This document shows, piece by piece, positions 42,612 through 61,083 of a stretch of DNA of 64,000 bases. Source of the DNA: an uncultured Actinomycetota bacterium (GTDB lineage Bacteria > Actinomycetota > Acidimicrobiia > Acidimicrobiales > Bog-793); the NCBI GenBank assembly GCA_963735115.1, contig CAVTJR010000003.1, positions 1,352,641 to 1,416,640 on the forward strand, given 5' to 3'. Positions within the stretch are counted from its first letter, which is position 1. Each line of letters begins with the position of its first letter. The notes under the pieces were generated by a model. The model saw only the letters and a program-made list of their open reading frames with translations, searched no databases and was not told where the DNA came from. The position numbers and the translations under genes were made by a program.

Positions 42612-45600
42612 TCAGTCCGGTACCTGCTCGAGCCTGGCCGCATGGTTGAGCCGCTCCAGGAAGGGCTTGGCTCCCAGCTCGGTGAAGATGTCCCGGGCTT
42701 CCTTGGCCATCGTGGCGTCCGGGTGATCGGGACCGAGGAGCAGGACGCGGTCGAGCTCGCACAGGGCCAGGTCGAGAGTACAGTCGAGCGCCCGCCACGC
42801 CTCGACCGCCTTTCGGTAGGTCTCGGCCGCCTCCTGCACTCGACCTTCGAGCGCAGCCAATCCGGCCTCCATCGTCAGGCGCTCGGCCGTCATCCACCGG
42901 CCGCGAAAGGGCCTCATCGCCAAAAGAGCCTCTTGCACACCGACGGTGTCACGCAGCCACAGGCAGGCGCGCGCGCGAATCGCTAGAGCATGCCGACTGT
43001 TTGTCCCAGCCGGTTCGAGGGCCACGGCATCGCCCGCCTCCCGCTGGGCCGCGTCGAGGTCACCGGCCGCCAGGCTCACCAGAGAGCGATCCACCAAGTA
43101 CGTGGTGCGCGCGGCCAGGAACTCGCTCGACGCCGCCACTTGCTCACCGGCCTCTTTGAGGGCGGCCGCGGCCGTGGCGGACTCTCCGGTGAGCGCCGCC
43201 AGCATCGCCTTGCGGATGGGCAACGTGACGCGCCTTACAGACGTGGGCTCTCGCTCTTCCAGCTCAGCGATGGCGGTCCGTGCGCGACCCCAGTCGCCTA
43301 GGAAAAGCGATCCTTCGGCAGTGTCGCCCAGCTTCCACATCTCGAGGAGTCGGTCCCCAGCCCGCCTCGCCAGATCAGCCGCCTCCATCGTGGCGAACAG
43401 CGACTCTCTGGGGTTTTCTTCGAAGACAAGGAGGCCCAGAAGACTCTGAGCCAGAGCGAGGTCTCGGAGGGAACCGGCCGCCTCGGCGAGGGCGACATGC
43501 CCTCGAGCGAGTATGACGGCCTCGAGGTGGCGACCGAGGTTGTACAAGGCGTACGACTTGGAGACGATCGTCTGTGCCACGAGGGCAATGTCGTCGAGCT
43601 GCTCGGCGAGGACGAGGGCGGTCTCGGACCACTCGAGGGCGCGCGCGGGCGAGCCCGAGTTCGCGTGAGCGACCGTCAGCTCGCAGGCGAGACCAGCCCT
43701 GACGCGCTCCTCGCCTTCGTCGCCTAGGGCCTCGAAGGCCCGCTCGACCCGCTCGATGGCCTCCGAGTAGCGGTCCAAGCCGCCGAGCGCGCGAGCCAGC
43801 GCGGCGGTGGCACGACCGGCGGCATCGTGGTCGCCGGCCGCGTCGTAGTAGGCAATGGCCTCCTCGAGACGGGCCATCGCCTTTTCGTAGGCCATCGCGC
43901 GCCCTCCAGCCTCGCCGGCGGCCTCGAGGAGCAAGGCGTGCTCGGGCCCGGCCGGTGTCATCTCGAGGGCCTGTTCGAAGAAGGCGAGCGCCTGCTCGGG
44001 CGAGCCGAGGGAGAGGGCGCGCTTTCCTGCCCGCGAGAGCCACTCACGGGCACCGACGGCGATCTCGGTGGCCTCGGTTTCCGGGGCGGCCCGCTGTGCC
44101 TCGACGTAGTGGGCGGCCACGAGGCCGGTGAGCTCCTCGTCGCCGAGGGATTCAAGGTGGCGAGCGACTGCGAGGTGCTTGGCGCTGCGGTCGTGCCTCG
44201 CGAGGGTGGCAGCGGCAACCTCGGCGATGATCCCCTGCACGAAGCCGTGCTGGCCTCGCTGGGGTGAGCGGGGGGCGGTCTCGAGGTAGAGGAACTCCTT
44301 TCGCACGAGGTCCCGCAGCTCAGGCTCGAGGCTGGCGGCGGTCTCCCCGCCGTGCAGGGCGGCCAGGGCCTCGGTCGGAAAGGTCCGCCCGACGACGGCG
44401 GCGTCCTGCAGGAGGGAGCGCTCCTCTGGCGAGAGGGCGTCGAGGCGGGCGGCGACAAGGGCGTGCAGGGTGTCTGGGATCTGGAGAGAGCCAAGTTCGC
44501 CAACAAGGCGGTAGCTGCCGTCCTCGCGCACGAGGACGCCCCGGTCGACGAGCATGCGCACCGTCTCGACGCCGTAGAGGGGGACGCCCTCGGAGCGTGC
44601 CCGCACGGCTTCGACCACCTCGTCCGGCACACCTTCGACGAGGCCGTGGAGGAGGTCGCCCATTTCGGTCTCCGAGAGCGGCTCGAGGTGAAGGGCGGCG
44701 AAGCTGTGCTGCCCGGCCCCCCAGGCGGGCCGACTGTCGAGCAGCTCGGGTCGGGCGAGGGTCACGACCAGGATCGGGTGGTTTGAGGACCACTCGAGGA
44801 TCGACTCGACGAAGTCGATGAGCCCCGCATCAGCCCACTGCAAGTCCTCGAAGACCATGACGGTGGTCGCCGTGTCGGCGACGGCCTCGAAGAAGCTCCG
44901 CCAGGCGGAGAAGAGCTCGTTGCGGTCGCCCGGCGGGGCCTCACCGATGCCGAGGAGGTGGGCGAGGGACGCCCCCACCCAGCGGCGGTCGCGTTCGTCA
45001 GCGACGAACTCGGCCACACAAGCCGAGAGCTTGGCCCTCGAGGAGCCGGGCTCTTCTGACTCGCCGATGCCCGCGCGCATGCGCACCATCTCGCCAAGTG
45101 CCCAGAAGGTGATGCCGTCGCCGTAGGCGGGCGAGCGTCCCTCATGCCAGTGAACCGGCTCGACGAGTCCGTCGGTGTACTTGGCGAACTCCCACACGAG
45201 CCGGGTCTTGCCGATGCCGGGGACACCCATGACCGACAGCAGTCTTGCGCGGTGCTCGCGTTCGGTCGCCGCCAAGAGGTCCTTCATGAGCCGGAGCTCC
45301 TCGGCCCGGCCGACGAAGGGGGCTTCGAGCGCTTCCGAGCGCCCTACGCCTCGTCGCTGGGCGACGACGCGAAGCGCCCGCCAGGCGGTGACGGGCTCGG
45401 ACTTACCCTTCAGCTGAAGCTCCCCCACCTCCGAGAAGCCCCCAGACGGCCATGACGGCGTCACCGATGAACTTCTCCACCGTGCCGCCGTAGCGGGCGA
45501 TGACCCGCTCGGCACGCCCGAAGTAGTCCGAGAGCAGCTCGCGTACCTCCTCCGGGTCGCGCTTTTCCACGAGCGGTGTGAAGCTGACGAGATCTACGAA

Positions 45601-50631: not shown

Positions 50632-50805
50632 ATGGGAGCCGGCACCGTCGGGCGCACCGACGGCGTCGACCCTTCCAGCATGGCACATCGACCGAGGGTG
50701 AAAAAAGCAACCGGCTGCGGCGCCGGTCGCGTCCCAACCAGCTTGTGGGCACCGAATTCCCAGCATCCCGGGTATGCCGCACCCCTCGTTACCTACGTGC
50801 CAAAC

Positions 50806-50834
50806 TTGACCGCTTCGCCTGCTTCGCCTAATTT
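50806..50834 (+). promoter_or_regulatory. Candidate sigma70-type promoter of the pst operon
   Basis: TTGACC (50806-50811), a 17-nt spacer, then TAATTT (50829-50834), about 58 nt before the GTG start. The spacer is a tandem GCTTCGCCT GCTTCGCC repeat, and the region is locally AT-richer. Confidence 0.3.
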
Positions 50835-50892
50835 CATAGTTTCAGTAGCAAATCAGGCCGTGCCCGACGGCCGCCGACAAAGGAGATACAGC

Positions 50893-52179
50893 GTGCCGAA
50901 TCAACGACGCCGCCGAGCGCGGGCCGGTCTCATCGGGGGGGTCTCGGTGCTGGCAGCGGTTGCCTGCATGAGCCTCACCGGCCTCGTAACGGCGAGCGCA
51001 TCCAACCTGCCGCCAGGTAACACCGTCATCATCGGAAGCGGATCACAGACCGCTTACAGCTTGATGACCGGCCTCGACGACCTCTTCAACTCCTCGCAAG
51101 GCTGCAACGAGATCGCCGCCGCCGGAACCTCCGAGGTCCAGTCGTTGAGCTTCAACTGTGCAGCCGGTCCTGCCGGCGCGGTCGGCTTGCCCGCCGCCAA
51201 CGGCGAGAACCCCCTCAATGACGTCGCCCTGCAGGAGCCGCCTCTCGGCGGTTCGAATGGCCTGAAGCAGCTCGAAGGGCAAGTTCCCGTGCTCGGGACC
51301 GAACCGATCAGCTTCGCCACGACGGTGCGAAACCCAACCGCCTCTGATCCGCAGGGCCTCAACTTCGTGAACTACGCCGACGACGCCATCTCCTGGTTCC
51401 ATTTCACCAAGGTGGGCAAGAAGGCGACCCCGTCGGCGAAGATCAAGTCGCTCACGATCTTGCAGCTGGAGAACATCTGGCTCGGGAACATCACCAACTG
51501 GAAGTCGCTCGGCGGCAAAAGCGCTCCCATCAAGGTGTACGTCACGAACTCGGGCTCAAGCTTGCTGACCATCTGGAATACCAGTCTCGGGAACATCAAC
51601 TCCCAGACGTACCCGGAGACAGAAGGTCCCTCCTACGTCATCGAGCAGAACGAGGACGCTTCGATCATCAAGAACGGCAACGAGGCTGACGCCATCTTCT
51701 TCTTCTCTCGCGGCCGCTTCCTGCAGACTTGTGACGAAGGCACCTGTGGTGGCTCGCGAATCCCTGGCGGTGGTACCACCGCCCTCGGCGAGATCAACGG
51801 GGTCAAACTCACCAACGCCAACATCTTGAGCGGCTTGTGGCCCGTCCGGGTCTTCCTGTCGAACGTGTACTCGGACGGCTCGAACTCCAAGATCCCGGCC
51901 GCCAACCAGGCGACGCTCAACTACGTGAGCGAAGACGGTTTCTTGTGCAAGTCGCAAACGTCCCACGGCAAGCGCATCCTCGACCCGCTCACAGGCGTGT
52001 GGTACCGCACCGAGATCGACAACCTCATCGCCGCCGATGGCTTCGTCCCGATACCGATCGGCTCAGAAGGGCTCGTCACGAACCCCGCAGTGCCCGGCTC
52101 GCCCTACAGCGGATACGACTCTTCCGGCAGCGACCCGAGGGGCTACTGCAAGGTGAGCACGACGGACGGGAACGCCTGA
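50893..52179 (+). CDS. PstS-like (PBP_like_2) substrate-binding protein, atypical
   Basis: AAAGGAG lies upstream of GTG 50893. The signal-like N-terminal part is RRRRARAGLIGGVSVLAAVACMSLTG. The body reads VIIGSGSQTAY...ADDAISWFHF...LTILQLENIWLGNITNWKSLGG...VTNSGSS. Codon usage looks AT-richer than in neighbouring genes. Confidence 0.75.
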   Translation: MPNQRRRRARAGLIGGVSVLAAVACMSLTGLVTASASNLPPGNTVIIGSGSQTAYSLMTGLDDLFNSSQGCNEIAAAGTSEVQSLSFNCAAGPAGAVGLPAANGENPLNDVALQEPPLGGSNGLKQLEGQVPVLGTEPISFATTVRNPTASDPQGLNFVNYADDAISWFHFTKVGKKATPSAKIKSLTILQLENIWLGNITNWKSLGGKSAPIKVYVTNSGSSLLTIWNTSLGNINSQTYPETEGPSYVIEQNEDASIIKNGNEADAIFFFSRGRFLQTCDEGTCGGSRIPGGGTTALGEINGVKLTNANILSGLWPVRVFLSNVYSDGSNSKIPAANQATLNYVSEDGFLCKSQTSHGKRILDPLTGVWYRTEIDNLIAADGFVPIPIGSEGLVTNPAVPGSPYSGYDSSGSDPRGYCKVSTTDGNA

Positions 52180-52447: not shown

Positions 52448-53461
52448 TTGAGCAAGAGCACTGAGATGACCCCAGAAGGTGATGGCAGGTCGAGCGGACG
52501 GGACACGGCGGCGATGCCGCGGCCGGTCACGAGCGAGCACCGCTTGGACGATCGCCTGTTTCGCGGGGGCACGCGGAGCGTCGGACTTGCTGTCTTCGGG
52601 CTCTTGTTCGCCATCGGTGCCTTCCTGTTGTGGAAGTCCATGCCGGCCTTCGACAAGAACGGCCTCATCAGCTTTCTCACGACGACCGGCTTCACTACGA
52701 GCGGCGTCGCCCATCCGGTCTTCGGCGTGGCCGCCCTCCTCTTCTGGACAGTCGTCATCGCCCTCATCGCCGCCGTGATCGGTGTCCCCATCGCCGTCGG
52801 CACTGCGCTGTTCATCGTCGAATTCGCCCCGGCGCGGCTCCGACGCGTCCTCATCGCCGTAATCGACCTGCTGGCGGTCGTTCCCTCGATCATCTTCGGG
52901 CTGTGGGGAGTGTTCTTCCTGCAACCCCGGATGGTGGGCTTCGAGCAGTTCCTCTCCGCTCACCTGAGCTTCATCCCCATCTTCGCCACGACCTCGGCCG
53001 TGCTGAAAGGATCGGCATTCATCGCCGGCACGGTCGTTGGGATCATGATCGTGCCCATCGTCACCTCGATCACTCGCGAGATCTTCTCCCTCGCGCCGCA
53101 AGGAGAGCGAGAGGCGGCGCTCGCACTCGGCGCCAGCAAGGCATCGATGATCCGGGCCGTCGTGCTGCCGTTCGGACGCGGCGGCATGATCGGGGCGGTC
53201 ATGCTCGGGATCGGGCGGGCGATGGGAGAGACCGTCGCCGTGGCCACGATCATCTCGACCATCTTCGTCATCAACCCGCACATCTTGCAGGTGGGCGCCA
53301 ACTCGATCGCGGCCTTCATCGTGCTGCGCTTCGGAGCAGGCGGACCGCTTGGCTTGTCGGCGCTGATGGGGATCGGCTTCGTGCTCTTCTGCTTCACGTT
53401 GCTCGTGAACCTGGCTGCGTCCTTCATCGTGAACCGCTCGCGCACCGGAGCGAGCGCCTGA
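52448..53461 (+). CDS. pstC: Phosphate ABC transporter permease PstC
   Basis: The 337-aa polytopic protein reads ...REIFSLAPQGEREAALALGASKASMIRAVVLPFGRGGMIGAVMLGIGRAMGET.... Confidence 0.9.
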   Translation: MSKSTEMTPEGDGRSSGRDTAAMPRPVTSEHRLDDRLFRGGTRSVGLAVFGLLFAIGAFLLWKSMPAFDKNGLISFLTTTGFTTSGVAHPVFGVAALLFWTVVIALIAAVIGVPIAVGTALFIVEFAPARLRRVLIAVIDLLAVVPSIIFGLWGVFFLQPRMVGFEQFLSAHLSFIPIFATTSAVLKGSAFIAGTVVGIMIVPIVTSITREIFSLAPQGEREAALALGASKASMIRAVVLPFGRGGMIGAVMLGIGRAMGETVAVATIISTIFVINPHILQVGANSIAAFIVLRFGAGGPLGLSALMGIGFVLFCFTLLVNLAASFIVNRSRTGASA

Positions 53462-54606
53462 TGTCGATCGCCACACTCGAGAGAGCCGGGGCCACACCGC
53501 CCAACGAGCAGCCGAGCCCTCGCGACCTCCACCGGCGACGTCCCCGCCAATTCACCGGCACGGATCTCGTCGTGCTCGTCTCCTCGGCTCTGGCAGCAAT
53601 CAGCTTCGTGTGGATCGTCTTCTACCAGCTGACGCTGCTGGCCGGCGGCTCCGGCTTCGTGATCTGTGCCCTGCTGTCGTTCCTCGTCATCTACTACCTT
53701 GCGAATCGCAGCCTTTTCGGCCACATGGCGGCCGTCAATCGCGTGATCGGGGCGCTCGTGACCTCGAGCGCAGTCGCAGTCACCATCGCCCTCGCCCTCG
53801 TCGTGGTCTTCCTCGTCTCGCGCGGCTATCACCTCATCAGCCTGCACTTCCTGACCCACGACCAGGGTGACGTCACCCAGACGGCGCCGGCGAGCGCCGG
53901 TGGCGTCAGCCACGCGATCGTGGGCACGCTCGAACAGGTCGGTCTGGCAGTCGTCATCGGCGCCCCGGCAGGCATCATCACCGCCATCTTCATCAACGAG
54001 GTCGGCGGCCGCGTCACCTCCCTCGTGCGCACGGTCGTCACGGCCATGAGCGCCTTGCCGACGATCGTGGCCGGGTTGTTCATCTACGTCATCTACATCT
54101 CAGCCACCCATCACGGCTTCTCAGGCCTCGCCGGCTCCCTCGCATTGTCGATCATGCTGCTCCCGAACGTCACCCGCACCACTGAGGAGGTGCTGAAAGT
54201 CGTGCACGGGTCGCTGCGGGAGGCCTCCATGGCTCTCGGTGCACCGCAATGGCGGACCGTCTGGTCCGTCGTTCTGCCGACGGCGCGCGCCGGCATCGCC
54301 ACGGCGGTGCTGCTCGGCATCGCCCGCATCGTCGGAGAGACGGCCCCGCTGATCGTGACGATCTTCGGCAGCACCTTCATGCAGACGAACCCTCTGCATG
54401 CTCAAGAAGCCCTTCCCTTGTTCATCTGGCAGAGCTATGGCCTCCCCCGCCAGGCGGACATCGAGCGCGCCTTCGCCGCCGGCCTCGTCCTCGTCGGCCT
54501 CGTCCTCATCCTGTTCGTCCTCGCCCGTCTCGTCGCCTCCATCCGCCCGGGGGCGGTCCACCGCATGGTCACGAGGCTGCGCCCGAGCCGTCTGGAGGCA
54601 TCGTGA
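53461..54606 (+). CDS. pstA: Phosphate ABC transporter permease PstA (long N-terminal region)
   Basis: ATG 53461 overlaps the pstC stop (TGATG). The sequence reads ...TEEVLKVVHGSLREASMALGAPQWRTVWSVVLPTARAGIATAVLLGIARIVGETAPL.... Confidence 0.9.
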   Translation: MSIATLERAGATPPNEQPSPRDLHRRRPRQFTGTDLVVLVSSALAAISFVWIVFYQLTLLAGGSGFVICALLSFLVIYYLANRSLFGHMAAVNRVIGALVTSSAVAVTIALALVVVFLVSRGYHLISLHFLTHDQGDVTQTAPASAGGVSHAIVGTLEQVGLAVVIGAPAGIITAIFINEVGGRVTSLVRTVVTAMSALPTIVAGLFIYVIYISATHHGFSGLAGSLALSIMLLPNVTRTTEEVLKVVHGSLREASMALGAPQWRTVWSVVLPTARAGIATAVLLGIARIVGETAPLIVTIFGSTFMQTNPLHAQEALPLFIWQSYGLPRQADIERAFAAGLVLVGLVLILFVLARLVASIRPGAVHRMVTRLRPSRLEAS

Positions 54607-55457
54607 GCACGACCGAAGACTTCGTCTCTTCCGGCACCCTCTCGTCCCCCTACGACTCGGCGGCGCCCGCGGCCGCCTCGCACGCCTCCGAGCTCGTGGC
54701 CGAGGACGTCTCGGCCTGGTTCGGCGGCCACCTCGTCTTGGAGCGGGTGAGCCTTTCGATGGAGCGCTCCAAGGTGACGGCCCTCATCGGGCCTTCCGGC
54801 TGTGGCAAGTCGACGTTCTTGCGCATCTTGAACCGCATGCACGAGGTCGTGCCCGGGGCCGAGCTCGGCGGCCGGGTGCTCCTGGAGGGCGAAGACGTCT
54901 ACGGGCCGCAGATGCGCGCCACCGAGGTGCGCAAGCAAATCGGCATGGTCTTCCAGAAGCCCAACCCCTTCCCCGCCATGACCATCGAGCACAACGTGCT
55001 CGCCGGCCTGCGCTTTGCCGGCACGAAGGTGCGCGCCGCCGACCGCCGTGAGCTCGTGCAGGAGATGCTCGTGAAGGCCGGCCTGTGGAACGAGGTGCGC
55101 AACCGCCTCTCCGCCCTCGGGGGCGAGCTCTCCGGTGGCCAGCAGCAGCGCCTCTGCATCGCGCGGGCCCTGGCGGTGCGCCCGAACGTCTTGTTGATGG
55201 ACGAGCCCTGCTCGGCCCTCGACCCCACCTCCACGCGGCGCATCGAGGAGACGATCCGCGAGATCGCCGACGACGTCACCGTCGTCATCGTCACCCACAA
55301 CATGCAGCAGGCCCAGCGGGTGAGCCACGCCTGCGCCTTCTTCCTGGCGGCCGAGAACCAGCCGGGCCGCATCGTCGAGTCCGGCACGACCGAGCAGATC
55401 TTCGAGAGCCCGAGCGACGAGAGGACGGCGGACTATGTCCATGGGCGCTTCGGCTGA
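54603..55457 (+). CDS. pstB: Phosphate ABC transporter ATP-binding protein PstB
   Basis: GTG 54603 overlaps the pstA stop (GTGA). Motifs are GPSGCGKSTFLR (Walker A), LSGGQQQRLCIARA (signature), LLMDEPCSALDP (Walker B) and ...ADYVHGRFG. Confidence 0.95.
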   Translation: MSTTEDFVSSGTLSSPYDSAAPAAASHASELVAEDVSAWFGGHLVLERVSLSMERSKVTALIGPSGCGKSTFLRILNRMHEVVPGAELGGRVLLEGEDVYGPQMRATEVRKQIGMVFQKPNPFPAMTIEHNVLAGLRFAGTKVRAADRRELVQEMLVKAGLWNEVRNRLSALGGELSGGQQQRLCIARALAVRPNVLLMDEPCSALDPTSTRRIEETIREIADDVTVVIVTHNMQQAQRVSHACAFFLAAENQPGRIVESGTTEQIFESPSDERTADYVHGRFG

Positions 55458-57193
55458 GGGCTCGGCCGCGGCCGGCGGCCTCTCCCGCGGGATCGGTTGC
55501 GATCTCGCTCCTGGCGGCTCTGGCATTCGTGACCGTGTCGGCTCAGAGCGTCGGCATGACCCGGGCGCTCGCAGCCGGTCCGGAGGTCACCGGCGCAGGC
55601 TCGAGCTACGCCGCGCTCGCCATCAACAACTGGGACGCTCAGATCTCCACGGTCTACGGAGACACCGTCGACTACAGCACGTCCTCCTCCGTCATCGGCC
55701 TCAACCTGTTCGCCCAGAACCAGGTGACCTTCGGTGCCTCCGAGATCGGCTACTCGACCGGGCAAGCCAACTACACGCCCACGACGCCCTACCAGTACCT
55801 GCCCGACATCGCCGGGGCGACGTGCCTCATGTACAACGTCAAAGGCCGGCTGGGCAACCAGGTTCGATCGCTCAACCTCGACTCGCGGGTCCTGGCAGAG
55901 ATCTGGACGGGCACGATCACGAAGTGGGACGACCCAGCCATCGCCGCCATCAACCGAGGTGTCGACCTGCCGAACGCGCCCATCATCGCCGTCTTTCGCA
56001 CCGATGCGTCCGGGGAGAATTACGTCTTCTCCCAGTACCTCGACTACCTGCAGCCCGCCATCTGGGTGCCTTTCGTGAAGGCACTTCAGGCCGGCTCGCC
56101 CGTGAGCGCCGACTTCCCGCAGGGCAGCAGCAGCTCCCGCCGGTACCACCTCTCCAACTTCTTCGGTCAGAGCGGATCGGACGGCACCTCTGACCTCGTC
56201 GCCAGCACGAACGACGCCGTCACCTATGTCGAGACCGGCTATGCCATCTTGCACCACATGCCGTGCGCCTACGTGGAGAACGCCAGCCACAACTGGGTGC
56301 AGCCCTCGGAGGAGACCGACGCCGTCGGACTCGAGCGCGCCGAGCTGCTCCCCGACCTCGAGCAGAAGCTGCAAGGCGTCTACTCGAACCCGCTCCCGAG
56401 CGCCTACCCGATCTCCGCCTACAGCTACCTCATCACGCCCAAGGGCCCTGGTTCGATGTCGCCGGCGGAAGGGGCCGTCCTCGGCCAGTACATCCGCTTC
56501 TTCGCCTGCACGGGTCAGCAATCGGCCGGAACGCTCGGGTACTCGCCTCTTCCGCCCAACCTCGTTGACGCCGACTTCGCCGCCATCAACCGCATCCCCG
56601 GCGCAGCCAGAGCGCCGGCCGCCGCCACGGCGGCGAACTGTCCGGATCCATATGTCGACGGCCAAACCGTCCTCCCGGGCGAACCCTGCATCGTCGGGCA
56701 GCCCTGCCACTCCTCGGGCGGCGGCACGACGCCTCCGACCACGTTGCCCACCGCCACCATCACGACGACCACGACGGCGCCCACCAGCGGTGTCCCTCAC
56801 CACAAATCGGGCGGCTCCAAGCGCCACAACGCCGGCCACACCAAGCCAGCTCGCTCAGGTCAGCACTACGGCGGGGGCGGGAGCAGCGGCAGCGGGGGCG
56901 GCGGGACGACGAAGCCCGGGTCTCCGTCGCTCGCCAACGGACAATGGCCGGGCAAGAAGATCGTCCCTGGGGCGCAGCCGGGTGCCAACCTGCCGAATGG
57001 GCAGACCCTCGGCAATGAGCTCGCCACAGAGGACTTCACGTTGCTCGGTGTGAGAGTCTCGCCCGCGACGATGTGGGGCTCGGTCGCCTTGCTGATCCTC
57101 CTTCTCGCCGTCCCGCCCACCCTGGCCCGCGTGCGCAGGCGCCGGAAGCTCGGTCGCTTGGCCACGACGGACTCTCGTGGAGCTCGACAATGA
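55454..57193 (+). CDS. pstS: PstS-type phosphate-binding protein with a Thr-rich stalk, Gly/basic tract and C-terminal TM anchor
   Basis: The sequence reads GAGSSYAALAINNWDAQIS...FGASEIGYS...LAEIWTGTITKWDDPAI...TDASGENYVFSQYL. The C-terminal part is TTPPTTLPTATITTTTTAPT...GGGGSSGSGGGGTT...WGSVALLILLLAVPPTLARVRRRRK. The start is inferred as CTG 55454 overlapping the pstB stop (CTGA), because the frame has no ATG, GTG or TTG before the signal peptide. Confidence 0.75.
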   Translation: MRARPRPAASPAGSVAISLLAALAFVTVSAQSVGMTRALAAGPEVTGAGSSYAALAINNWDAQISTVYGDTVDYSTSSSVIGLNLFAQNQVTFGASEIGYSTGQANYTPTTPYQYLPDIAGATCLMYNVKGRLGNQVRSLNLDSRVLAEIWTGTITKWDDPAIAAINRGVDLPNAPIIAVFRTDASGENYVFSQYLDYLQPAIWVPFVKALQAGSPVSADFPQGSSSSRRYHLSNFFGQSGSDGTSDLVASTNDAVTYVETGYAILHHMPCAYVENASHNWVQPSEETDAVGLERAELLPDLEQKLQGVYSNPLPSAYPISAYSYLITPKGPGSMSPAEGAVLGQYIRFFACTGQQSAGTLGYSPLPPNLVDADFAAINRIPGAARAPAAATAANCPDPYVDGQTVLPGEPCIVGQPCHSSGGGTTPPTTLPTATITTTTTAPTSGVPHHKSGGSKRHNAGHTKPARSGQHYGGGGSSGSGGGGTTKPGSPSLANGQWPGKKIVPGAQPGANLPNGQTLGNELATEDFTLLGVRVSPATMWGSVALLILLLAVPPTLARVRRRRKLGRLATTDSRGARQ

Positions 57194-59577
57194 GCCGGCT
57201 GGCGCGCCTGCTTGCCGCTGCCGGCCTGGCAACGCTCGCGATCGCAGGACTGACGCTCGGGGCGACAGCGGCGCGGGCAACCCCGATGGGCGGTGCTGCC
57301 GGCGCCCGATCTGGGGCGACGCCGAAGCGGGCGTGTGCCCCCGGCGCCACCTGCGTGACGATCCCCTCCCCGTGTCCGTCCGGGTCGAGGTGCCCGACGG
57401 TGTCCGTAGAGCCGTCGAACGGCCTCGGCCAGAACCAGTGGATCTACCTGAATTTCTCCGACTTCGCCGCCGGAAGCGTCGCCCAGATTTACTACTGCGA
57501 GAACCAGACGCCGCTCACCGCCACCAGCCCGCCCTACTGCGTCCTCGAGGGCACGCCCACCTTCACCTACCCCAACCAGGAGCTCCCGATCTCGGCGAAC
57601 GGCAGCGGGGCGATGAGCTTCCAGACGCTCGACGACCCCAACGTGGCGGGTGACACCGCCCTCGTCGGTCAGATCCCGGGCGACACGACGGCGCCGCCGC
57701 AGAACTTCTATTGCGGCGACACCGCCGACCAGTGCTCGGTCGACGTCGTCGACTGGTCGCTCCTGAGCTCGCCGCGTCCGAGCAACATCGCCATCCCACT
57801 GCCGTCTGACACGGCCGTCATCCCGCTCGGATTCGCCCCACAGAGCAACGGCTGCCAGCAGGCGACGTTGGTGTCGACCTTCAGCGACAACAGCATCGAA
57901 TGGCTCATCCCGCACGAGTCGCCGGTCGTGTGCAAACAACAGCATGCCGCCGTCGCACTGAACACCTCCACGAGCACGTCGTTGATCCTGGGCTCGCTGC
58001 AAAACGGCAACGTCGTGTTCCTGGACGATCCGCAGGCGGCCGATGTGCGGGCGGCGCTCTCCAAGGTCCATTACGCCGTCGTACCGGTCGTGGCCTCTGC
58101 CGTCGTCATGGGATACGTCGCCGCCATGGAACAGCAAGGCCTCAGCTACCCGTTCAACGACTTCCGCCTGACGCCCAACGAAGTGGCCGGACTTGTCACC
58201 TATGCCTATCAGGGCCCTTACGACGGCGACCTCGTGAAATGCAAGGGCGGTCCGTGCTCCGCCCTGCAGGGCCTGAACTCCGTCCGGGGCTTCGTGGGCG
58301 CCGGCCAGTACGGGGTATTCATCCCCTCGGAGACAACAAGTGTCACCGAGACAATCACGAACTGGGTGTGCAACGCCCCAAACGTTCCCTTCGTGCTGAA
58401 CGGCAAGCTCATCACGGACCCGAACAGCGCCCAGAAGACGTTCACGACCTCGGTCAACCAGCGCCCGTGGCCGATCACCAGATGCACGACCTTCGACCAA
58501 TTCCCGGCGCTCAAGCCCTTTGCGACCTTGTTCGAGCAGGCGGCCGACCCGATCCATGCCGTGAAGTACCTCCGCACCTTCGCCGTCCCGCCCCAGTTCC
58601 AGCCCTCGCCCGTGGCAGGGTTCGCACCCATCGACTGGGGAGACGCCCGTTACTACGGCCTCGACGCTGCTGCCTTGCAGAACGCCGCCGGACAGTTCAT
58701 CGCCCCCAGCACGGCCTCGGTGCAGGCCGAGATAGCGGCCGAGCCTCTCTCGAACGCCGGCTACCCCCTTCCGGACGCCAAGCTGCGCGTGAGGGGCGGC
58801 TACCCGATGTCGACGGTCATCGACGCACTCGTGCCGGAAGGCCCGCTCCCAGCTACCCAATCGAAACCCATCGCCCAGATGATGACCGATCTCCTCGACT
58901 ACACGACGACGGCGCCCCTACCCGACGGCTATGTCCGGCTGCCGGCAAAGCTGAGGGCCCTCGCCCACCGGGAGCTCACGAACGCCCTGGAAGCTGAGAC
59001 GGGGGCGGTGACGAGGACGCGCGCCTTGATCCGGCCGACGTCGGTGACGCAGGGACACCCCGTCAGATACGTGGCGAAGGTGTCGTCAGCCCGCCGCAGC
59101 CCGACGGGGAACGTGACGTTCACGACGGGAGCGACAACGCTCTGCAGCGCCCAGCTGACAAGGGGGAGGGCGGCGTGCACGGCCTCGGACGCCCCGGTCG
59201 GCTTCGACAACGTGACGGCAAGCTACGCAGGTACCGTCAGTTTCGGTCCTTCGGTGGCCACGGCCACGCTCGACGTCTCGGCCCCTCCCCCGCCGCCTAC
59301 GACCGTCGTGACGGTCACCACGATGCCGCCGCGTTCGCGGACGACCACCACGACGACGACGGTGCGCTCGACCGTGCCCTCGACGGTGCCGTCCAAGGCC
59401 AAGGGGTCCGGCCCGAGCACGCTGTCGGTCGCCGACGTCAGGCTGGCGGCCGCAGCCGACAGCGTCGCCCTCCCGATTGCGCTCGCGGCGGGAGGGGCCT
59501 TGATCGCACTCAGTCTCGGACTGTCCTTCGTCGGAGTCCTTCGACGTCGCCACGCAGGTCGTACCGAGGGTGCCTGA
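57190..59577 (+). CDS. Large Cys-rich secreted protein with a PstS-like-looking core, Ig-like segment, Pro/Thr stalk and C-terminal TM anchor
   Basis: ATG 57190 overlaps the upstream stop (ATGA). The signal is MSRLARLLAAAGLATLAIAGLTLGATAARA. An Ig-like stretch reads GNVTFTTGATTLCSAQL...ASYAGTVSFGPS. The C-terminal part is PPPPPTTVVTVTT...TTTTTTTV... then ALPIALAAGGALIALSLGLSFVGVLRRRH. Confidence 0.7.
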   Translation: MSRLARLLAAAGLATLAIAGLTLGATAARATPMGGAAGARSGATPKRACAPGATCVTIPSPCPSGSRCPTVSVEPSNGLGQNQWIYLNFSDFAAGSVAQIYYCENQTPLTATSPPYCVLEGTPTFTYPNQELPISANGSGAMSFQTLDDPNVAGDTALVGQIPGDTTAPPQNFYCGDTADQCSVDVVDWSLLSSPRPSNIAIPLPSDTAVIPLGFAPQSNGCQQATLVSTFSDNSIEWLIPHESPVVCKQQHAAVALNTSTSTSLILGSLQNGNVVFLDDPQAADVRAALSKVHYAVVPVVASAVVMGYVAAMEQQGLSYPFNDFRLTPNEVAGLVTYAYQGPYDGDLVKCKGGPCSALQGLNSVRGFVGAGQYGVFIPSETTSVTETITNWVCNAPNVPFVLNGKLITDPNSAQKTFTTSVNQRPWPITRCTTFDQFPALKPFATLFEQAADPIHAVKYLRTFAVPPQFQPSPVAGFAPIDWGDARYYGLDAAALQNAAGQFIAPSTASVQAEIAAEPLSNAGYPLPDAKLRVRGGYPMSTVIDALVPEGPLPATQSKPIAQMMTDLLDYTTTAPLPDGYVRLPAKLRALAHRELTNALEAETGAVTRTRALIRPTSVTQGHPVRYVAKVSSARRSPTGNVTFTTGATTLCSAQLTRGRAACTASDAPVGFDNVTASYAGTVSFGPSVATATLDVSAPPPPPTTVVTVTTMPPRSRTTTTTTTVRSTVPSTVPSKAKGSGPSTLSVADVRLAAAADSVALPIALAAGGALIALSLGLSFVGVLRRRHAGRTEGA

Positions 59578-60550
59578 CGCGAGGCTCACCAAAGAGTCGC
59601 CACTCGTAGAAGACGTGCCTGACGCCCTTCCTGCCGAGGAAGCCACTGATGACGGCGAACCGGTTACGACCAGCTCCAGCGTGCCGGCGGGGACGGACTC
59701 CCGCAGGGGGCGCCGACGCCACCAGCCAGGCTCCATCGTCTTCACGGCTGCGGTCATCACCGCCGGCATGGGCCTTCTCGTGGCGGGCTTCGCCGTCTAC
59801 CTGTTCGGCTTCACGAGCCTGGAGGCCTTCCACGCCCAGCATCGCCTCGCTGAGCAGTTGGCCGGCTCGGCCGGCCTGGCCGCCCTCAATGGCACGACAC
59901 CGCCCGAAGGCGAGGCTGTCGCCATCCTCGACATCCCCACGATCGGGATCCGCCAAGTCGTGGTGGAGGGTACGTCGTCAGAGGATCTGGAAGCGGGCCC
60001 CGGCCTCTTGATCGGTTCCGCGCCGCCGGGGACGGGCGGCGACGTCGTCATCGCCGGGCGGCGCACGACCTACGGCTCCCCCTTCGCGCGCCTCGACCGG
60101 CTGAAGAACGGCGACACGGTCATCCTCACGGGTGCGCTCGGGGAATTCCGCTACACGGTGTCGACGACGCGGGTCGTCCGTCCCGGGTCCCCACTGCCGG
60201 CGAGCCCGACCAGCGCCGGCCGGTTGACGCTCGTCACCTCGACACCGGCTGTGGAGGCGTCGTCCCTCCTCGTCGTTACGGCCGATCTCGCCGGCAAGCC
60301 CGTCGCCTCCGTGCCGCTCAGCGACGCGGCGCTTCCCTCCACGCAATTCGGTCTGGCGGGCGACGGCGCCGCCGTGGCTCCGGCCATCGGCTGGGGCGGT
60401 GCCCTCATCGGCGTTCTTCTCTGTGCCTGGTACCTGTTGCGCAGGTCGAGAAAGACGTGGCTCGTCTACGGACTGGCAACCCCGATCGTGATCGCCGCTG
60501 CGATCCTCTGCTACGCCAACGTGGCGGCGCTGTTGCCTGCGACGTTGTGA
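59570..60550 (+). CDS. Class E sortase-fold membrane protein lacking the His/Cys/Arg catalytic triad
   Basis: It has an N-terminal TM helix. The sequence reads GEAVAILDIPTIGIRQVVVEGTSSEDLEAGPG...DVVIAGRRTTYGSPFARLDRLKNGD (sortases have AGHR here)...RLTLVTSTP (sortases have TLxTC)...SLLVVTADL (no Arg). Two additional C-terminal TM helices follow. Confidence 0.8.
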   Translation: MPDARLTKESPLVEDVPDALPAEEATDDGEPVTTSSSVPAGTDSRRGRRRHQPGSIVFTAAVITAGMGLLVAGFAVYLFGFTSLEAFHAQHRLAEQLAGSAGLAALNGTTPPEGEAVAILDIPTIGIRQVVVEGTSSEDLEAGPGLLIGSAPPGTGGDVVIAGRRTTYGSPFARLDRLKNGDTVILTGALGEFRYTVSTTRVVRPGSPLPASPTSAGRLTLVTSTPAVEASSLLVVTADLAGKPVASVPLSDAALPSTQFGLAGDGAAVAPAIGWGGALIGVLLCAWYLLRRSRKTWLVYGLATPIVIAAAILCYANVAALLPATL

Positions 60551-61083
60551 ACCCCGCCTTCGGCGGCGCGCCCAGCCGCTCGCACGGGCGGCGGCGCCTG
60601 GCGCTCGCCGCGGCCATCGCCGCGGTGTGCTTCGGCACCGGTGCCTGCTCCTCCGGCTCGAGGGCTGCTTCGTCGCCCCACGAGAGCACGACCTCCTCGA
60701 GGGTGCCCTCGAGCTCGACCGTCACTATGACAACGGTGCGCTATTCGGGATACGTGACCATCAAGGGCAAGAAGGTCGGCATCCCGGAGGAAGGCACGAC
60801 TCCGATCAGCCTGGTCGAGAACGTCGGCGAGCAGATCATCATCACGCCGAGCCGCATCGAGCCACACCTCCTCTTCGCCCAGGTCGACTACCGACTGACG
60901 TTCACGAACCTGACGTCGGCTCCCCAGCGGCTGCGTTTCGTGAACGACGGCAACTGGCGCTCACCCGCTATCCCGCCCGGCGGGACGTGGCACTACACGC
61001 CCCGCGACGGCATCTCCTACTACTTCGTCACCAGCACCGGGCTGCAGGCAACGTTCCAGGCATCCCCCGCCGGCGCCCCGTAG
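60547..61083 (+). CDS. Lipoprotein with a small beta-sandwich (cupredoxin-like?) domain
   Basis: GTG 60547 overlaps the upstream stop (GTGA). The signal plus lipobox is LALAAAIAAVCFGTGACSSG, followed by an S/T linker. The domain reads ...LTFTNLTSAPQRLRFVNDGNWRSPAIPPGGTWHYTP... The fold assignment is tentative. Confidence 0.65.
   Translation: MNPAFGGAPSRSHGRRRLALAAAIAAVCFGTGACSSGSRAASSPHESTTSSRVPSSSTVTMTTVRYSGYVTIKGKKVGIPEEGTTPISLVENVGEQIIITPSRIEPHLLFAQVDYRLTFTNLTSAPQRLRFVNDGNWRSPAIPPGGTWHYTPRDGISYYFVTSTGLQATFQASPAGAP

Follow-up and report, generated by a model that had tools for sequence, protein, structure and literature searches.

A gene at positions 59570-60550 of a 64,000-nucleotide stretch from an uncultured Acidimicrobiales bacterium (contig CAVTJR010000003.1; the whole stretch is called the window below) encodes a protein that has the fold of a sortase and none of the three catalytic residues of these enzymes. 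The results of this work suggest, with a probability that we put at roughly 0.85 to 0.9, that this protein, here called the pseudo-sortase, is a sortase paralogue which has been conserved without catalytic activity and is coupled to Big, the large protein encoded directly upstream of it. Its gene appears to close the core of a Pst-type module for phosphate uptake, where it seems to have been fixed as a catalytically dead paralogue with three transmembrane (TM) helices. With catalytic residues that are missing and not relocated, and with its conservation under purifying selection, the protein has the marks of a pseudoenzyme. What is new is that the sortase superfamily has a branch of pseudo-enzymes whose partner and pathway context are defined and for which we infer a function.

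Membership of the sortase superfamily, the MEROPS C60 fold, is evident from profile hidden Markov models. The Pfam family PF04203 (Sortase) matches residues 120-240 along profile positions 1-124 of 125 with 70.2 bits (E=1.7e-19; gathering score 26.6), and TIGR01076 (sortase_fam) reaches 54 bits against a threshold of 39.35. The best NCBIfam model is class_E_sortase (NF033747), with 84.7 bits, below its cutoff of 160 bits, and in a phmmer search of the PDB sequences the class E sortases 5go6 and 5go5 rank first (E=2e-12), in agreement with the likeness to class E proposed in the original prediction, which had been made from the window's letters. The AlphaFold2 model, with 30 homologues as input, has a mean predicted local distance difference test (pLDDT) score of 83.8, above 90 over most of the ectodomain, and a predicted template-modelling score (pTM) of 0.75. 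In this model a beta-barrel domain is flanked by a long N-terminal helix (residues 54-98) and two C-terminal helices (266-292 and 296-321), and Foldseek matches it with a probability of 1.00 to more than 100 sortase chains, including 4d70 of class D (target-normalised template-modelling score, TMt, 0.83) and 5go6 of class E (TMt 0.78). By model and match together, the protein has the eight-stranded beta-barrel of sortases.

The start at 59570 is backed by the homologues P0006, P0009 and P0011, which align from residue 1 with 100% coverage. By the positive-inside rule, the basic patch RRGRRRH before the first TM helix and the RRSRK loop between the second and the third, whose R292 is found in 92% of the family, would both be cytoplasmic, and the ectodomain and the C-terminus are predicted to lie on the outer side.

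Loss of the catalytic residues

The catalytic columns were assigned from the phmmer alignments to the class E crystal sequences 5go6/5go5. AGRRTTYG of the window protein pairs with AGHRRTYG, which puts Arg164 in the His column; LTLVTSTP pairs with LTLVTCEP, which puts Ser224 in the Cys column; and SSLLVV pairs with SHRLIV, which puts Leu233 in the Arg column. The first two substitutions take two base changes each (CGG against CAY, TCG against TGY), and the frame is intact without any frameshift. Thus, the three substitutions first proposed from the sequence are borne out by codons and alignment, the column assignments are confirmed against the class E crystal sequences, and the claim that they are in-frame changes in a conserved fold agrees with the open frame, the Pfam match and the model. 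Relocation of the catalytic residues can be ruled out, as there is not a single Cys or His in the ectodomain (residues 105-262). The GPGHY region of class E enzymes reads GPGLLIG, and with it the tyrosine of the beta3/beta4 loop, regarded as a class E signature (PMC5148588), is gone.

The same kind of loss runs through a large family. A word-indexed search with the window protein gave 130 homologues, and a profile search took in 1.84 billion representatives, of which 2132 scored E<=1e-30, a number that is no measure of family size, since true class E enzymes are likely to score as well as this. The best 150 of these 2132 were inspected: they reach almost the last profile position, only one of the 143 new ones has His-Cys-Arg, and the full length of the profile is matched by at least 142 Cys-less clusters, formed at 50% identity. 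Across the 264 non-canonical family members on which residue counts are based, the His column holds R in 225, H in 26, K in 10 and S in 3; the Cys column S in 201, A in 40, T in 11, G in 8, M in 2, L in 1 and V in 1; and the Arg column R in 148, L in 54, T in 13, F in 9, A in 9, V in 8, Y in 7 and S in 4. The triple substitution first described therefore holds for the window protein and not for the family, where Arg is kept in 148 of 264 and the His site is still basic. What appears to define the family is the loss of the thiol alone, with a small residue in its place, the change from Arg to Leu being a further loss in the window's clade. No Cys at all is left in the ectodomain of 257 members, and the only ionisable ectodomain residues conserved in at least 85% are E133, R164, R165 and Y195, whilst His146 is kept in 163. 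As a control, 18 sortases from other phyla, which the scan of genome loci described below picked up as well, have His and Cys in 18/18 and Arg in 17/18, the Arg column of L041 being unaligned.

A quick neighbour-joining tree, rooted on the relatives with His-Cys-Arg, shows His-retaining members scattered among those that bear Arg; the combination of Cys with Arg in the His column occurs in none, which fits a loss of Cys first. The gene is under purifying selection (ratio of nonsynonymous to synonymous substitution rates, dN/dS, 0.17-0.29 at dS ~1, window gene against L001 and L002). With the nucleophile missing family-wide, no other Cys or His in the ectodomain, and such dN/dS values, the pseudo-enzyme reading of the original prediction is well sustained; the survey of homologues likewise found the Cys lost in all 264 members.

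The Pst-type module and the partner protein

All genes of the module lie on the forward strand (Table 1), in the order PBP_like_2 protein, permeases, PstB-like ATPase, the PstS-like binding protein PstS2, Big, pseudo-sortase and a small secreted protein. The last four are chained by overlaps of stop and start codons (ATGA at 57190-57193, GTGCCTGA at 59570-59577 and GTGA at 60547-60550), and this suggests translational coupling and co-production of the proteins.

In a scan of one genome per species, which gave 26 Acidimicrobiales loci, Big stands directly upstream of the pseudo-sortase in 26/26, down to 36% identity, and the full order pstC/A, pstB, PstS2, Big, pseudo-sortase is found in 23/26; among the exceptions, the flank ends with the contig in L004 and L018, and in L024 two genes for binding proteins occupy the upstream place. 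The pair of Big and pseudo-sortase is also intact in five of six more distant members that were looked up one by one. It is kept where the pst genes are reordered (L046, L049), divergent (L047, L052) or downstream (L054), and its two genes overlap by 4 bp in L046, L047, L052, L054 and L056 and by 7 bp in L049. L053 is full of frameshifts, yet fragments of ATP-binding cassette (ABC) and PBP genes lie upstream of its pseudo-sortase. The reciprocal search, started from Big, led to distant homologues (P0295 and P0301), and downstream of each there is again a gene of the Sortase family, whose three catalytic sites read R-S-W and H-S-R. In all, the pseudo-sortase comes directly after a large protein of 600-1000 residues in 34/34 loci examined, usually with overlapping stop and start, and the upstream protein has a common layout of signal peptide, PstS-fold domain, Thr/Pro stalk and C-terminal TM anchor. 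Of the 32 loci with the flank covered, 31 have genes of Pst-type ABC transporters, in several orders, next to the pair, so the linkage to pst genes surmised at the outset is upheld; no pst permease or ATPase gene adjoins the pair in L055. The original prediction had tied the protein to two upstream C-terminally anchored proteins, and whilst the tight linkage stands, the two are not equal in it: the invariant partner is Big.

Big itself gave no match in a sequence search of the PDB. Its layout consists of a signal peptide, a neocarzinostatin-like sandwich, a divergent PstS fold, a Big_3_5 immunoglobulin-like (Ig) domain, a disordered Thr/Pro stalk of ~60 residues, a TM helix (760-788) and the tail RRRH. 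Residues 304-633, numbered in the 834-residue reading of the open reading frame (ORF) from 57073, align in hhalign with the neighbouring PstS-like protein (probability 99%, E=4.8e-18), and PstS structures are the top Foldseek matches of the AlphaFold2 model (pLDDT 73.6; 7xg8, TMt 0.78; 4lvq, TMt 0.75), the N-terminal domain matching neocarzinostatin-type sandwiches. In the hhalign alignment the Arg/Ser-Gly-Thr phosphate-binding stretch of PstS is not conserved, and because of this apparent loss Big may be a non-canonical or pseudo binding protein. Seven Cys are invariant in this 'Ig-like domain-containing protein', and four more nearly so. The 49 aligned C-termini share the juxtamembrane consensus V-x-L-x(3,4)-A-R-x-L-L-P-x-x-L, which becomes SR(F/L)ILP in the distant loci L052 and L054, and this motif is a candidate for the segment that the pseudo-sortase might recognise.

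PstS2 is closer to the standard binding proteins (TIGR00975 PstS, 195 bits against a cutoff of 205; PBP_like_2, E=2.8e-21; PDB PstS 8ods, E=5e-29). It ends in a Gly/Thr-rich linker, a TM helix with VPP and the tail RVRRRRK, and (V/G)PP near the cytoplasmic end of the helix, followed by RRRR, is conserved across loci. Its frame has no ATG, GTG or TTG between 55085 and 55529, the signal peptide (…SVAISLLAALAFVTVSAQS) is encoded ahead of 55529, and the last position of pstB is 55457, so that PstS2 would begin either with a non-canonical codon or at 55085, overlapping pstB by ~370 nucleotides. At the positions aligned to the phosphate-binding Asp56 and Thr141 of E. coli PstS, PstS2 (55550-57190) has Glu, and its ligand specificity may thus differ from that of standard PstS.

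Both proteins are laid out like sortase substrates, with a signal peptide, a stalk of low complexity, a TM helix and a basic tail, and a sorting signal was looked for. A pattern scan found no LPXTG or LAXTG signal in any ORF of the window, its only match in a coding ORF being ALPIAL in the tail of Big, without Thr-Gly; nor do the tails of PstS2 and Big carry either signal in more than 25 loci, and no cleavable motif that is conserved and common to both was found in their C-termini. Possible relics of such a signal were inspected by eye and rejected: LATED, LASSG and LASPN precede the anchor of PstS2, and that of Big starts with ALPIAL or LLPALV, but register and residues do not fit, and the composition is rich in Ala, Ser, Thr and Leu anyway, which weakens such a reading further.

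Table 1. Features of the module in the window
Feature	Positions	Strand	Basis and remarks
Third PBP_like_2 protein, without C-terminal anchor	50632..52179	+	Pfam; a homologue lies downstream of the pseudo-sortase in other clades
Pst-type permease region (pstC/pstA-like, BPD_transp_1)	52630..54606	+	Syntenic in related loci
pstB-like ABC ATPase	54603..55457	+	ABC_tran E=7e-33; ORF open from 54249, likely start GTG 54603
PstS2, PstS-like binding protein	55085..57193	+	Stop overlaps Big start (ATGA)
Big, 795 residues	57190..59577	+	Pfam Big_3_5, hhalign, AlphaFold2/Foldseek; stop overlaps pseudo-sortase start (GTGCCTGA)
Big juxtamembrane motif LSVADVRLAAAADSVALPIAL, TM helix and RRRH	59422..59553	+	49 aligned C-termini; AlphaFold2 helix 760-788
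Pseudo-sortase coding sequence	59570..60550	+	326 residues, GTG start; N-terminal TM, sortase-fold ectodomain, C-terminal TM hairpin
TM1, residues 53-87	59726..59830	+	Hydropathy scan; AlphaFold2 helix 54-98; preceded by basic patch RRGRRRH, cytoplasmic side
Sortase-fold ectodomain, residues 113-241	59906..60292	+	phmmer alignment to 5go6/5go5; pLDDT
Arg164 codon CGG, catalytic His column	60059..60061	+	Sequence and phmmer alignment
Ser224 codon TCG, catalytic Cys column	60239..60241	+	Sequence and phmmer alignment
Leu233 codon CTC, catalytic Arg column	60266..60268	+	Sequence and phmmer alignment; clade-specific loss
TM2, residues 266-290	60365..60439	+	Hydropathy, AlphaFold2; GLAGD motif before, cytoplasmic RRSRK loop after
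TM3, residues 295-326	60452..60547	+	Hydropathy, AlphaFold2; conserved C-terminal LLPATL at its end
Small secreted protein, probably lipoprotein-like	60547..61083	+	Signal peptide followed by Cys; GTG start overlaps pseudo-sortase stop

Some features of the neighbourhood deserve mention in their own right. The permease region is one ORF of 658 residues with an internally repeated BPD_transp_1 domain, where related loci have two genes of ~340 and ~370 residues, and it could be either a pstC-pstA fusion or an artefact of ORF calling. Conservation of the small downstream protein, which matched no Pfam family, is limited to the closer clade, and other clades have a PBP_like_2 gene in its place; in P0070 (449 residues) the pseudo-sortase reads through into a homologue of the small protein, by fusion or frameshift. 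A large gene for an AAA_16 regulator lies in the window at 42612-45515 on the reverse strand, ~5 kb upstream of where the module begins, and a gene with AAA_16 and GerE DNA-binding domains adjoins the module in L052 (1-1604), which may be coincidence. Genes for PPK2, CHAD/CYTH and NUDIX-His_Phos_1 proteins lie beside the module in L046 (1-887), L049 (9947-12408) and L054 (10171-12569), and such neighbours from polyphosphate and phosphate metabolism reinforce a phosphate-related role.

Descent from class E sortases

The pseudo-sortase appears to be a paralogous offshoot of the class E sortases of the Acidimicrobiales themselves. Five His-Cys-Arg relatives align with the window protein over the full length, both C-terminal TM helices included, and a search with one of them (P0097) gave 4207 matches, the best 119 of which have His-Cys-Arg without exception (119/119), at a length of ~300 residues and a coverage of 96-100%. 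Many of these 119 are named "class E sortase [Acidimicrobiales bacterium]", 114 have GPGHY, and their C-termini read LLPANF, LFPANI or LLPANV. Since intact sister enzymes carry the same C-terminal hairpin, it is ancestral; the two C-terminal TM helices noticed at the outset are real and yet no addition to the sortase plan. The three-TM layout, the Q-x-x-L helix after TM1, the G-x-x-GD motif before TM2 and the terminal LLP-x-x-hydrophobic motif thus seem all to be inherited. The enzymes do not share the neighbourhood: neither of two of their loci belongs to a pst operon. In L057, which has a long flank, the enzyme gene adjoins ccm (cytochrome c maturation) genes, and in L050, on a contig of only 2.9 kb, it has no pst or Big neighbour.

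The conserved C-terminus deserves a closer look, as LLPATL resembles an LPXTG-like signal built into the protein as a pseudo-substrate. This idea was downgraded once the 119 sister sequences were seen to end alike. A terminal [LFMVAIC]-P-x-x-hydrophobic motif is found in 260/269 relatives, among them the five catalytically intact ones; pseudo-sortases mostly have LLP(A/S/G)TL, one clade has LLPNLL, and sister enzymes have LLPANF or LFPANI. The LLP-x-x-hydrophobic end would therefore be an ancestral feature of the membrane interface, of which only the change from Asn to Thr is specific to the pseudo-sortases. Its position, predicted to be at the outer membrane face, is strictly conserved. The co-variation of the LLPNLL tail with a lost Arg233 is limited to a single clade.

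How far the protein has moved from its relatives can be judged from the class E reference structures, 5GO5/5GO6 (Streptomyces avermitilis), 5CUW (SrtE1, Streptomyces coelicolor) and 9IOK (Thermobifida fusca). The fold is the same (Foldseek TMt 0.63-0.78), class E gives the best PDB-sequence and NCBIfam matches, and the motifs VVEGT…GPG…PG…G…IAG-x-R…G-PF…L…GD and L-T-L-x-T-x are held in common; with the class E enzymes of the Acidimicrobiales, the likeness extends to TM1, the Q-x-x-L helix, G-x-x-GD, TM2, the RR loop and a TM3 with the LLP-x-x-hydrophobic end. In the pseudo-sortases, however, Cys has given way to Ser (or Ala, Gly, Thr) and His to Arg (or Lys), in the window's clade also Arg to Leu and GPGHY to GPGLL; the gene lies in a pst operon with no LAXTG substrate nearby, and the protein ends in LLPATL and not LLPANF. 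Class D gives the best structural match (Clostridium perfringens SrtD, 4D70; TMt 0.83, root-mean-square deviation 2.9 Å over 157 columns), but with 57 bits the protein stays below the cutoff of the class D model NF033746 (165 bits), it lacks the catalytic residues, and its architecture in the membrane is different. The label 'class D sortase', which the annotation pipeline PGAP gives to the window protein's cluster, is best regarded as over-annotation, and the protein should be listed neither as a class E nor as a class D sortase: of what marks a sortase enzyme, it has neither Cys, His or Arg nor, among the ORFs of the window, a cognate sorting signal, and it also stays under the class E cutoff.

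Possible roles of a sortase fold without catalysis

If catalysis is gone, what remains may be recognition. We consider it rather probable that the pseudo-sortase was recruited as a non-covalent partner of the tail-anchored PstS-like proteins. TM1 and TM2 would tie the ectodomain down at both ends and hence hold the former sorting-signal groove near the outer membrane face, which is also the exit site of the juxtamembrane segment of a tail-anchored protein; this favours a role as tether or assembly factor. The groove would then bind, without cleaving it, the juxtamembrane segment of Big (…A-R-x-L-L-P…), possibly also the anchor of PstS2, whilst the TM bundle would pack against the TM anchors of its partners, and the stalk-anchored binding proteins would in this way be assembled or positioned beside the PstCAB transporter. 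A fold for substrate recognition would have been turned into a permanent tether or assembly factor. This specific mechanism, the tethering or assembly of the Big anchor, is drawn from gene linkage and from the exclusion of catalysis, and we hold it with less confidence than the partnership as such. More tentative still is the idea that the pseudo-sortase is a non-covalent receptor of an uncleaved anchor which, together with Big, makes a membrane-tethered, wall-spanning phosphate-capture assembly feeding or regulating the Pst transporter.

Several observations weigh against this line of thought. The His column is still basic (R, H or K) in 261/264 members and Arg233 is kept in 56% of them (148/264); Ser is invariant in the window's own clade, where, by sequence alone, residual chemistry is possible; the partners' motifs are unlike known sorting signals, which makes docking in the old groove an extrapolation; and all members come from metagenome-assembled genomes (MAGs) of uncultured Acidimicrobiales.

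The basic His column and the retained Arg233 could point to a ligand of another kind than a peptide, for instance an anion or a precursor of the cell wall. A non-catalytic protein might in that case bind lipid II or a peptidoglycan stem peptide, and so place the Pst module in the wall, or bind phosphate or polyphosphate at R164/R165 (and R233) as a sensor or regulator. Conserved R165, the pst genes found everywhere, the phosphate-metabolism genes of L046, L049 and L054, and a Big that lacks the PstS Arg/Ser-Gly-Thr signature, so that the pair need not be a simple binding protein, would all suit such a ligand. But R165 is ancestral (the enzymes read AGHR), Arg233 has proved dispensable in two large clades, evidence of a ligand pocket is wanting, and a protein partner is favoured by what stays constant, namely that the gene is adjacent and translationally coupled to Big and not to the transporter. 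We therefore regard another ligand as unlikely.

Still less likely is that the protein remains an enzyme, a transpeptidase or protease with Ser224 as nucleophile and Arg164 assisting, which would process the anchors of Big and PstS2 at a new site without LPXTG. In favour of this, the Cys column most often holds Ser, which is invariant in the window's clade, Arg or Lys is almost fixed at the His column, and both upstream proteins resemble sortase substrates. However, 63/264 members have Ala, Thr, Gly, Met, Leu or Val instead of Ser, and intact syntenic genes are among them: of the syntenic loci with intact ORFs, 13 have Ser in the Cys column, 9 Ala, 1 Gly and 2 Met (among them L009, L013, L017-L020, L022 and L026 with Ala, L012 with Gly and L047 with Met), so Ser is no required nucleophile, and as an essential one it is ruled out at the level of the family. 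There is no conserved His or Lys to act as general base, and with only E133, R164, R165 and Y195 conserved, neither a Ser-His nor a Ser-Lys dyad is possible; the oxyanion- and substrate-binding Arg233 is lost as well in the window's clade, and the partners have no conserved cleavable motif in common.

That sequencing errors in a genuine class E sortase, or drift in a decaying pseudogene, have produced these substitutions has next to no probability, despite the frameshifted copies in related long-read MAG loci, given two base changes per substitution in an intact frame, 14 near-identical sequences from independent assemblies (the window protein's 90%-identity cluster, with Acidimicrobiales bacterium MAGs from NCBI, ENA, JGI and Logan), more than 250 homologues, down to ~30% identity, with the full-length architecture and the same kind of substitutions, and the dN/dS of 0.17-0.29; the error alternative raised in the original prediction is ruled out with it. 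The copies broken by frameshifts (L019, L023, L024, L027 and L053, MAGs apparently of long reads) probably result from faulty assembly and are no true pseudogenes, since the genes around them are fragmented too.

The reading of the pseudo-sortase as an inert partner of Big has parallels in other systems. SipA/LepA of Streptococcus pyogenes resembles a signal peptidase, lacks the catalytic residues and is needed for sortase-mediated pilus assembly (PMC4049620). It is likewise an inert, membrane-anchored homologue of a processing protease, encoded in an operon with clients that it is thought to bind, and would be the nearest described functional analogue that we found. The analogy is one of mechanism only: SipA/LepA has the signal peptidase I fold, and belongs to the pilus islands of Firmicutes, and real sortases cleave and polymerise its clients; in the present case the inert protein is the sortase homologue itself, and the clients are proteins of the solute-binding type. 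The iRhom and Derlin pseudoproteases have an inactive intramembrane or juxtamembrane protease fold which keeps client recognition and serves as chaperone or scaffold for TM-anchored clients; the concept is shared with the pseudo-sortase, though these proteins are eukaryotic, of rhomboid fold and not homologous. With canonical PstSCAB systems, the module has in common the Pst-type permeases, the ATPase and a PstS-like binding protein, but those systems have neither a component of sortase fold nor a second giant protein of PstS fold, and here the binding proteins are held by a C-terminal TM helix and not by a lipid. On pseudo-sortases, Cys-less sortase homologues, sortases of Acidimicrobiia or a link between sortases and PstS, nothing relevant was found in the open-access literature searched.

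Sortases are regarded as obligate cysteine transpeptidases, and a large, selected, Cys-less branch tied to a PstS-fold partner suggests that the fold which recognises sorting signals can be reused without its chemistry. As public databases name members of the family "sortase A", "class D sortase" or "sortase", inventories of sortases and surface proteins of the Acidimicrobiales are inflated. With its well-defined partner, the family offers a tractable case for the evolution of pseudo-proteases from housekeeping enzymes, and it points to an unrecognised accessory part of phosphate acquisition in an abundant, mostly uncultured order of soil and freshwater actinobacteria. If the pseudo-sortase does act as receptor in a capture assembly, this would be a previously undescribed accessory module of Pst in the Acidimicrobiales and the first functional pseudo-sortase.

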